Positions 23,236-51,603 of a stretch of DNA of 64,000 nucleotides are shown one piece after another. The DNA comes from a virus (Duplodnaviria; Caudoviricetes): IMG/VR virus record IMGVR_UViG_3300025316_001101. The stretch is one strand, 5' to 3'. A program made the position numbers and the translations under genes. Numbering within the stretch: the first letter of the stretch is position 1; every line of letters begins with the position of its first letter. Under the pieces are notes generated by a model that was not told the origin of the DNA, ran no database searches, and saw only the letters and a program-made list of their open reading frames with translations.

Positions 23236-23268
23236 CAAAAAACCCCGGTTCTTCGAACCGGGGTTTTT
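23236..23268 (-). terminator. Intrinsic terminator (attenuator 2)
   Basis: Stem AAAAACCCCGGTTC/GAACCGGGGTTTTT with U-tract. Confidence 0.9.
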
Positions 23269-23317
23269 CCTAAAACTTATACCGGTTCGGGCTGTCCCGA
23301 CCGGCGTATGCCTTGGT

Positions 23318-23395
23318 TCAGGACGTAGTGTGGCTAATATGACCGTGTTTCGGCCAGCATTTACCACTACGTCTTGTAATCAAAGCAAATAACAT
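23318..23395 (-). CDS. Leader peptide 2 (MLFALITRRSGKCWPKHGHISHTTS)
   Basis: AAAGGA RBS; enriched in codons read by cluster-2 tRNAs; followed by competing hairpins and terminator. Confidence 0.75.
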   Translation of the reverse strand: MLFALITRRSGKCWPKHGHISHTTS

Positions 23396-23413
23396 TTTCG
23401 TTTCCTTTACACC

Positions 23414-23441
23414 TTAGACGCACCAAGCGTCCAAAAGGTTC
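23414..23441 (-). promoter_or_regulatory. ECF-sigma-like promoter (GAACCT-16-GTCTAA)
   Basis: Matches GAACTT-N16-GTCTAA ECF consensus, ~19 nt upstream of leader 2. Confidence 0.4.
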
Positions 23442-51337: not shown

Positions 51338-51603
51338 TCCACGATCTCCAACTCAAAAGCTCCAACTTCACAAAAACACTCTAAATCTCCTTGCGGAGTA
51401 GACACCTTAATAGGTCGTATCTTACCTTCCGGTGTTACGTATGTCGCCTTTAACTCCTTCAATAAAGCATCAGCTTGTGAAGCTTGAGAAAAAGCTTTTT
51501 CGGTTTTTATAGCAACATACTCACCAGCAATTTGACGAGCCACTGTAATGACGCAAAAAATCTTTTGATGGTGAATGCCCTCGTTTTTATCGTTTTCTGC
51601 CAT
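51334..51603 (-). CDS. Hypothetical protein
   Basis: ORF track; GAGG RBS. Confidence 0.6.
   Translation of the reverse strand: MAENDKNEGIHHQKIFCVITVARQIAGEYVAIKTEKAFSQASQADALLKELKATYVTPEGKIRPIKVSTPQGDLECFCEVGAFELEIVE

Follow-up and report, generated by a model that had tools for sequence, protein, structure and literature searches.

Leader-peptide attenuation is the textbook mode of control of amino-acid operons. In classical attenuators, ribosome stalling within the leader gives rise to the antiterminator, and termination results when the ribosome has reached the stop codon or when the leader is not translated. Here, we describe a candidate attenuator of this kind in a giant freshwater virus of the class Caudoviricetes (IMG/VR record IMGVR_UViG_3300025316_001101), located ahead of a group of tRNA genes. 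The element, referred to below as leader 2, is an open reading frame (ORF) of 25 codons placed upstream of an intrinsic terminator and tRNA cluster 2. We consider it fairly probable that this region is a functional, ribosome-sensing (leader-peptide) transcription attenuator of tRNA supply ahead of cluster 2, and it probably measures how rapidly ribosomes translate those codons that are read by the tRNAs that the phage itself encodes downstream. The window, i.e. the whole stretch of DNA analyzed, comprises 64,000 nucleotides (nt) and is the minus strand of G000:C1:99025-163024, where G000 is the virus record. Positions in the window are marked with w and those in G000:C1 with g. The record is 259 kb long and has 41% G+C and a completeness estimate of about 50%. 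Near-identical DNA was found in freshwater and lake metagenomes from several studies.

The enterobacterial attenuators (ilvL of ilvGMEDA and thrL, as well as trpL, hisL, leuL, and pheL) likewise consist of a promoter, a short ORF with control codons, alternative helices, and an intrinsic terminator. The closest of these are the multivalent leaders ilvL and thrL, which share with the phage element the use of several codon types as sensors. In contrast to the leaders of amino-acid operons, the genes presumably regulated here are those for tRNAs, not for biosynthetic enzymes, and the codons form a one-of-each checklist of the downstream anticodons instead of runs for a single amino acid. The phage leaders also differ in discriminating at the level of isoacceptors and synonymous codons (AAA versus AAG; AGA versus CGG versus CGC; GGT versus GGA). 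Finally, the phage helix chain has one extra layer (0, A, B, C, and the terminator arms T5' and T3') and is preceded by a promoter of the extracytoplasmic function (ECF) sigma type. None of the Rfam leader families was detected in the window scan at the gathering threshold. Membership in the Thr_leader family (RF00506) was rejected, the match being sub-threshold (23.7 bits versus a cut-off of 55; E 0.27).

The pheM leader of the Escherichia coli pheST genes, encoding phenylalanyl-tRNA synthetase, is likewise a leader-peptide attenuator that acts on part of the decoding machinery and not on biosynthesis. However, pheM is specific for one amino acid and regulates the production of a protein enzyme, whereas the products of the phage unit are the very tRNAs that read the sensor codons, which would make a direct feedback loop. 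T-box riboswitches bind uncharged tRNA via a specifier codon and the T-box sequence, with no translation involved. Their purpose is the same, namely to convert tRNA status into terminator read-through before translation-related genes, but the phage element would sense it via an ORF led by a Shine-Dalgarno (SD) sequence. No T-box was matched in the 64-kb window at the gathering threshold, nor in w19500-23800 at E-values of up to 1. Full-text literature searches retrieved no account of tRNA operons, whether of phages or not, being controlled by leader-peptide attenuation, or of leaders listing one codon per downstream anticodon.

Leader 2 and its match to tRNA cluster 2

The layout of unit 2 includes, in this order, a promoter motif, an SD sequence, a short ORF, overlapping helices, a strong terminator, and tRNA genes:

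w23412-23444, minus strand: ECF-sigma-type promoter motif AGTGAACCTTTT-N10-TGCGTCTAAGG, with -35 GAACC, a 17-nt gap, and -10 CGTCTAA
w23403-23407, minus strand: SD sequence AAGGA, 7 nt before the ATG of leader 2
w23395-23318, minus strand: leader 2 ORF, 25 codons from ATG to TGA, 50 nt upstream of the terminator and ahead of tRNA cluster 2; sensor codons ATT (two), AGA, GGT (two), AAA (two), TGG, CAC (two), and CAT
w23269-23237, minus strand: intrinsic terminator of unit 2, 15 pairs (7 G-C), 3-nt loop, and T run
w19964-22872, minus strand: tRNA cluster 2 with Lys(TTT) (two), Ile(GAT) (two), His(GTG) (two), Gly(GCC), Trp(CCA) (two), and Arg(TCT); small ORFs are interspersed

The ORF is present letter for letter as given in the earlier note on this sequence, and the strong terminator that was placed there at 23268-23236 was found at practically the same site; its core stem has a free energy (ΔG) of -15.7 in the terminator scan. 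All six anticodon species listed in that note for cluster 2 were correct. Default ARAGORN and Rfam searches yielded Lys(TTT) twice, Ile(GAT) twice, and one each of His(GTG), Gly(GCC), Trp(CCA), and Arg(TCT). The second Trp gene is an Rfam tRNA match of 41.7 bits (w20608-20538), and the second His gene was revealed with relaxed ARAGORN settings.

Codon sets were derived from the anticodons via standard wobble rules, and codon usage was calculated from 205 long ORFs of the genome. Eleven of the 24 codons of leader 2 are read by tRNAs of cluster 2, with the respective codon set making up 22% of genome codon usage (P 0.0086). All six downstream anticodon species are covered, and the joint P for match and coverage is 0.0018. 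The remaining five frames over the same DNA have only 1-5 matched codons of 25. Among 875 genome ORFs of 20-30 codons starting with ATG, three attain both values, leader 2 included. The comparison of leader codons with cluster anticodons, proposed in the earlier note as a permutation test, is therefore significant and frame-specific. The match is densest in codons 11-20 (8 of 10), and the unmatched codons are mostly located in the pairing segments 0 and A described below. At the amino-acid level, 12 of 24 residues are matched versus 30% expected (P 0.03).

RNA helices and the predicted switch

The segments of leader 2 that take part in the predicted alternative pairing are:

w23363-23386, minus strand: segment 0, codons 4-11; pairs with the A region in the fold without a ribosome
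w23308-23331, minus strand: segment A, the last codons and the TGA stop, with the core GUCCUGA at w23324-23318; pairs with 0 or B
w23296-23304, minus strand: segment B (CCGGUCGGG); partners are A or C
w23282-23291, minus strand: segment C (CCCGAACCGG); forms the anti-antiterminator with B and the antiterminator with the terminator 5' arm

The terminator wins at equilibrium in the full-length RNA, and the switch must therefore be kinetic. Folding was done on the transcript up to the terminator loop, replacing full-length equilibrium folding. Duplex ΔG values for leader 2 (kcal/mol) are -22.7 for 0:A, -15.6 for A:B, -18.0 for B:C, -14.1 for C:T5', and -24.1 for the terminator. Equivalent helix chains are present in the paralogous leaders 1 and 3, with duplex energies across all three leaders ranging from -14 to -23 kcal/mol.

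Without a ribosome, the truncated fold of leader 2 contains the helices 0:A and B:C. A ribosome placed at codons 6-15 leads to A:B (GUCCUGA/UCGGGAC) and to pairing of C (CGAACCGG) with the terminator 5' arm. When the ribosome is moved to the stop codon, B:C re-forms and leaves the 5' arm free. Sequestration of the 5' arm has a probability of 0.80 when A is free, compared with 0.23 when the ribosome is at the stop. Of 300 dinucleotide-shuffled versions of the leader 2 spacer, two attained this difference; the respective number for leader 3 was 4 of 300. A second measure, the antiterminator probability, gives a softer gradient: it is highest when the ribosome stalls at codons 4-15 and 19-20 (0.85-0.88) and amounts to about 0.4-0.6 at codons 22-26. 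The helices named in the earlier note, i.e. A:B, B:C, and C with the terminator 5' arm, were recovered by folding in nearly the same register, with C CGAACCGG opposite the 5' arm CCGGUUCG, and the proposed helix logic agrees well with the ribosome-position-dependent switch seen above the shuffled controls. What was missed there is the ORF-internal segment 0, which is predicted to pair with A and to give termination when the leader is untranslated.

A mechanism can be proposed on this basis. Transcription would start from the ECF-type promoter just upstream, and read-through from a sigma70 promoter at w23723 may add to it. The resulting short RNA would carry a ribosome-binding site and the 25-codon ORF, with the central codons for Ile (ATT), Arg (AGA), Gly (GGT), Lys (AAA), Trp (TGG), and His (CAC/CAT). 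If this ORF is not translated, helices 0:A and B:C as well as the terminator would form, and transcription would stop. A fast ribosome would reach the stop codon and cover A; B:C and the terminator would then form, with the same outcome. If cognate tRNA is scarce or uncharged, the ribosome would stall in the ORF and cover 0, thereby freeing A. Freed A would pair with B, C would pair with the terminator 5' arm, and polymerase would read into the tRNA cluster. The net effect would be negative feedback on tRNA supply. As judged from the sequence, translation of the leader 2 ORF, stalling, and regulated read-through would all be parts of this process.

The codon match would also support sensing if the ORF monitored decoding with a different output, such as Rho-dependent termination, processing or stability of tRNA precursors, or regulation of the opposite sign. 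The partial character of the switch at equilibrium could be read in the same way. However, all three units possess a canonical terminator with an overlapping antiterminator, and the predicted direction is from stall to antiterminator, which makes another output very improbable.

Paralogous leaders 1 and 3

The attenuator reading put forward in the earlier note is supported by every in-silico test, and a third paralogous leader, located outside the window, shows the same design with another codon set. Leader 3 was found by sequence similarity and served as an out-of-sample test. The two paralogous units are:

w2006-1766, minus strand: unit 1, with ECF motif at w2006-1977, sigma70 promoter at w1951-1924, 11-codon leader at w1899-1864, and terminator at about w1801-1766, followed by cluster 1
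G000:C1:198251-198510 (L002:1498-1757), outside the window: unit 3

Each of the three leaders is matched to its own cluster alone. Versus the other clusters, the counts nowhere exceed chance, with 0-2 codons matched across clusters except in comparisons with the large cluster 3. In leader 1, 7 of 10 codons are matched to the own cluster (P 4e-5). In leader 3, strict Watson-Crick matching gives 25 of 36 codons (binomial P 8e-6), a value not reached in any of 200,000 simulations, while matching with wobble gives 27 of 36 (P 0.002). Taken alone, leader 2 is statistically the weakest of the three. A redraw of synonymous codons only, with the peptides fixed, yielded P values from 2e-4 (Watson-Crick) to 2e-3 for the three leaders jointly. 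The reciprocity between leaders 1 and 2 suggested in the earlier note was borne out: none of the 24 codons of leader 2 is read by cluster 1, and none of the 10 codons of leader 1 has a Watson-Crick match to cluster 2.

The codons of leader 3 match 17-18 of 22 downstream anticodons. They include GTA, GTC, GTG; GCA, GCG, GCC; CCC, CCA, CCG; GAA, GAG; ACG, ACC; and also GGA, GAT, CGC, and ATA. Among the tRNAs behind this leader are Val TAC/GAC/CAC, Ala TGC/CGC/GGC, Pro GGG/TGG/CGG, Glu TTC/CTC, Thr CGT/GGT, Gly TCC, Asp GTC, Arg GCG, and Ile TAT. Leaders 2 and 3 have in common the promoter motif and the ending ACU-NNN-UCC-UGA, but their ORF bodies (25 versus 37 codons) have wholly diverged. The first gene after leader 3 is a tRNA gene, 27 nt past the terminator, and hence only transcriptional control can be at stake in this unit. 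According to the terminator scan, cluster 3 has no strong internal terminator up to g230484, right after the last tRNA. Cluster 1 is bounded by the leader 1 terminator and a terminator directly after its last tRNA. Upstream of the isolated tRNA genes at g183724, g188112, and g195714, no additional leader was apparent.

Promoters and sigma factors

The ECF-type motif, which the earlier note did not report, is located directly before the SD of leader 2 and ends about 17 nt before the ATG. Promoters of ECF sigma factors of group 4 have GAAC at -35 and CGTC at -10, separated by 16-17 nt. The strict motif occurs in three copies in 259 kb, one per leader; a fourth, weaker match is present at g228795. 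At least two phage proteins contain both Sigma70_r2 and Sigma70_r4_2, i.e. the two-domain make-up of ECF sigmas:

G000:C1:193323-193763 and 196922-197392: ECF-like sigma genes (L115, L116, L121, L124), the second about 0.9 kb upstream of leader 3

Two additional sigma matches, at g118730 and g131061, contain the r2 domain only. The position of the motif suggests that leader 2 is transcribed from an ECF-type promoter. Its transcript would start near w23410 and end at the terminator, with a length of about 175 nt.

Two sigma70-type promoters flank unit 2:

w23696-23723, minus strand: perfect promoter of the sigma70 type, TTGACA-16-TATAAT, ahead of two tRNA(CAT) genes; an identical 28-mer precedes leader 1 at w1951
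w23228-23200, minus strand: bypass sigma70-type promoter TTCACA-17-TATAAT (11/12), 9 nt after the terminator

The second of these was raised as a caveat in the earlier note, and it is indeed strong. A TATAAT box occurs at the same place in a relative, contig L127, in which the downstream protein is 79% identical. Leaders 1 and 3 lack a bypass promoter. Since it is present in unit 2, the attenuator could modulate only the share of cluster 2 transcription that comes from upstream. We may speculate that the sigma70 promoter serves early transcription by the host polymerase, and the ECF-type promoter with the attenuator belongs to a later programme driven by phage sigma factors.

Both flanks of the motif, separated by a variable 10-nt spacer, also occur upstream of dksA-like genes in Acidobacteriota, a conserved uncharacterised gene in Planctomycetota, and in other phyla. 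In Bryobacterales and Acidobacteriaceae, AGTGAACCTTTT-N10-TGCGTCTA is located 80-200 nt upstream of DksA/TraR-like genes, with a structured RNA-like region just upstream. In Rhodopirellula and Novipirellula, the motif precedes a gene encoding a 433-aa protein. This distribution over Acidobacteriota and Planctomycetota (L100-L114, L128-L140) may be a clue to the phylum of the host, or the phage may copy an ECF regulon that is widespread. The motif was taken to be a DNA promoter and not an RNA element, since in unit 1 it precedes the sigma70 promoter and in bacteria only the two flanks are conserved.

A promoter motif of its own and a strong terminator are also what one would expect of a free-standing small gene, whose RNA of about 175 nt and/or 25-aa peptide acts in trans, like rnTrpL/peTrpL of Sinorhizobium, with read-through control being absent or secondary. 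Trans-acting RNAs and peptides derived from attenuators are documented (PMC6614838, PMC7298713) and provide a precedent. The three leader peptides, however, are alike in their last residues only. The features they do have in common are a codon content fitted to the downstream tRNAs and the helix chain, and a small gene leaves the specificity for the own cluster unexplained. We regard this possibility as quite unlikely in place of attenuation; the two are not mutually exclusive.

Balance of the evidence

Two features between the upstream sigma70 promoter and leader 2 are of importance for judging the role of the terminator:

w23504-23675, minus strand: two tRNA(CAT) genes, missed in the earlier note
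w23445-23474, minus strand: weak hairpin and T run ending the two-tRNA(CAT) unit, read from the sequence

Several observations weigh against leader 2 being an attenuator. Its match is limited to 11 of 24 codons and, for this leader alone, P is about 0.002-0.009 before correction for the choice of the ORF. The synonymous-only signal of leader 2 is marginal (P 0.045-0.27). Leader 3 is G+C-rich, so that its wobble match is partly an effect of composition; one antisense frame reaches 28 of 37. The full-length RNA, when folded at equilibrium, forms the terminator in every ribosome state. By a second measure of the switch, the antiterminator probability drops only from 0.88 to about 0.4, and the switch score of leader 1 is not significant (51 of 300 shuffles). 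The strong and conserved sigma70 promoter after the terminator allows part of cluster 2 expression to skip the attenuator. Also, searches of GenBank phages, IMG/VR motif scans, and queries with neighbouring proteins revealed no more distant member of the lineage that has a different tRNA set.

Some of these points would be accommodated by a simpler view, which we hold to be rather unlikely, that the terminator merely ends the two-tRNA(CAT) unit transcribed from w23723, that cluster 2 is expressed from the promoter at w23228-23200 only, and that the 25-codon frame and its match are due to chance. A strong conserved promoter right after the terminator, 13 unmatched codons of 24 in a leader that is only moderately significant by itself, and a terminator that is thermodynamically dominant in every state would all agree with this view. 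It is at odds, however, with the frame-specific character of the match, which ranks in the top 0.3% of similar ORFs, and with the two paralogous units, where other codon sets are matched in the same way and a bypass promoter is lacking. Neither a dedicated promoter motif and SD directly before the ORF, nor a spacer encoding a ribosome-dependent switch above shuffles, would be expected of a chance frame. Moreover, the tRNA(CAT) unit is already ended upstream by the weak hairpin and T run, and a comparable weak hairpin is present at the same place before leader 3.

Conservation and relatives

A closely similar strain is represented by L106, a 3.7-kb metagenome contig with 93.8% overall identity. 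Over w23754-23083, it differs by two substitutions and a 21-nt deletion in the first tRNA(CAT), versus about 30 substitutions expected. One of the substitutions changes a leader codon from CAC to CAT, read by the same tRNA-His, and the other is located in the loop of hairpin B:C. The tRNA set of this contig has the same anticodons despite heavily diverged His and Ile genes. The pattern fits constraint on the locus, with variation that is too small for a covariation test.

BLAST searches of the locus against GenBank phages gave no match, and scans of IMG/VR for exact motifs returned either no matches or chance 15-mers only. No related loci came to light when the neighbouring 239-aa protein or the ECF-like sigma served as query. 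Contigs from four DNA runs contained strain variants only, with no covariation. Homologues of the 137-aa protein encoded upstream of leader 1 displayed no synteny with tRNA leaders; one of them is located within a tRNA cluster for Leu and Ser on contig L146, described below.

The first gene behind the terminator was also used in this survey:

w22903-23178, minus strand: gene for a 91-aa protein, the first gene 3' of the terminator, with a good SD and ATG at w23178

Its homologues (52-79% identity) either have different surroundings or are on contigs not long enough for a leader to be visible; L127 shows the -10 box alone. In the drawing of gene callers, the leader region becomes part of a gene for a 154-aa protein with a GTG start at w23367. 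That frame is open, and the 154-aa version is present in the protein database (P0001). All homologues, however, have 84-98 aa and align to the last 91 residues only; the GTG-start ORF across the leader was therefore rejected as an over-extension. The extension would cross both the 15-bp terminator and the promoter, and the shorter gene has the good SD and ATG named above. We give this gene model practically no credence.

Similar arrangements in Caulobacter phage phiCbK

A comparable arrangement was recognized in Caulobacter phage phiCbK (JX100813), in a comparison made by codon counts alone:

JX100813, 49540-49769: region of gp083, annotated as a hypothetical protein
JX100813, 51341-51502: region of a 32-codon ORF

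In gp083, 21 of 44 codons are matched and all nine anticodons are covered in frame, versus 4-12 matched codons of 45 in the other frames. This gene precedes an annotated terminator and a block of tRNA genes for Pro (two), Lys (two), Leu (three), and Ser (two). The 32-codon ORF, located at 51341-51439 and unannotated, has 11 of 31 codons matched and seven of seven anticodons covered, versus 3-6 of 32 in the other frames. It precedes the next annotated terminator and a block for Phe, Val, Ile (two), Val, Gln (two), and Gly. The matched proportions resemble those of leader 2, with no sequence similarity. The phiCbK units have sigma70-like promoters and a near-leaderless start, whereas the phage studied here has a dedicated ECF-type motif and three paralogous units. 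As phiCbK is a cultured phage, the design is testable at the bench.

Possible role in tRNA supply

We are evenly divided over a broader view, in which the units would form a modular homeostat of tRNA supply, each cluster having its own codon-checklist leader and switch under a dedicated ECF-sigma promoter, with sensing at the isoacceptor level that tops up only the tRNA set that is short. Such a homeostat could answer depletion or cleavage of host tRNAs in infection. If the attenuator is real, the ECF-type promoter together with the ECF-like sigmas of the phage would suggest a dedicated transcription programme for tRNA supply.

If attenuation takes place as proposed, phages regulate tRNA arrays by direct feedback from ribosome speed. 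This would bear on the questions why and when phages carry and express tRNAs, i.e. for codon compensation or for replacing degraded host tRNAs. The correspondence between leader codons and downstream anticodons would then be a searchable sequence rule for phage genomes. It would also help to delimit the transcription units of tRNA genes in uncultured viruses and to work out their decoding rules and use of wobble.

Other features of the tRNA genes

The virus record contains 48 tRNA genes and one transfer-messenger RNA (tmRNA) gene, all on the same strand. The latter is located at G000:C1:84822-85173 and encodes the tag ANTFAVAA. Two tRNAs with the anticodon CTA (amber suppressor type) are encoded at G000:C1:183724 and 210663. 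The stop codons of the three leader ORFs are TAA or TGA, never TAG.

Both tRNA(CAT) genes upstream of leader 2 are unusual. The first one (w23675-23582) contains a 21-nt insertion in the anticodon loop (w23642-23622), and its type was left undetermined by default ARAGORN. This insertion is missing in the 94%-identical strain represented by L106 and by a contig of run X5, which has a normal tRNA-Met(CAT) at this place. The second gene (w23577-23504) has a 6-bp anticodon stem and the unusual T loop GTCGGAA, and was detected with relaxed ARAGORN settings only. Conversely, tRNA-Lys(TTT) at w22546-22474 is intact, and its counterpart in the same strain (L106:2264-2358) carries a 22-nt insertion in the anticodon loop. 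It thus appears that small insertions in the anticodon loop are gained and lost between strains. The His(GTG) and Ile(GAT) genes (w21994-21841 versus L106:2838-2990) display dozens of differences each, with the anticodons unchanged, which looks like allele replacement.

Elsewhere in the window, an Rfam tRNA match of 129 nt and 43.8 bits (w33937-34065) suggests a long insertion or an intron. In a distant relative, L146 (a 41-kb contig of JGI 3300045339), ten tRNA genes for Leu and Ser only are located among ORFs, i.e. this cluster is sorted by amino acid.

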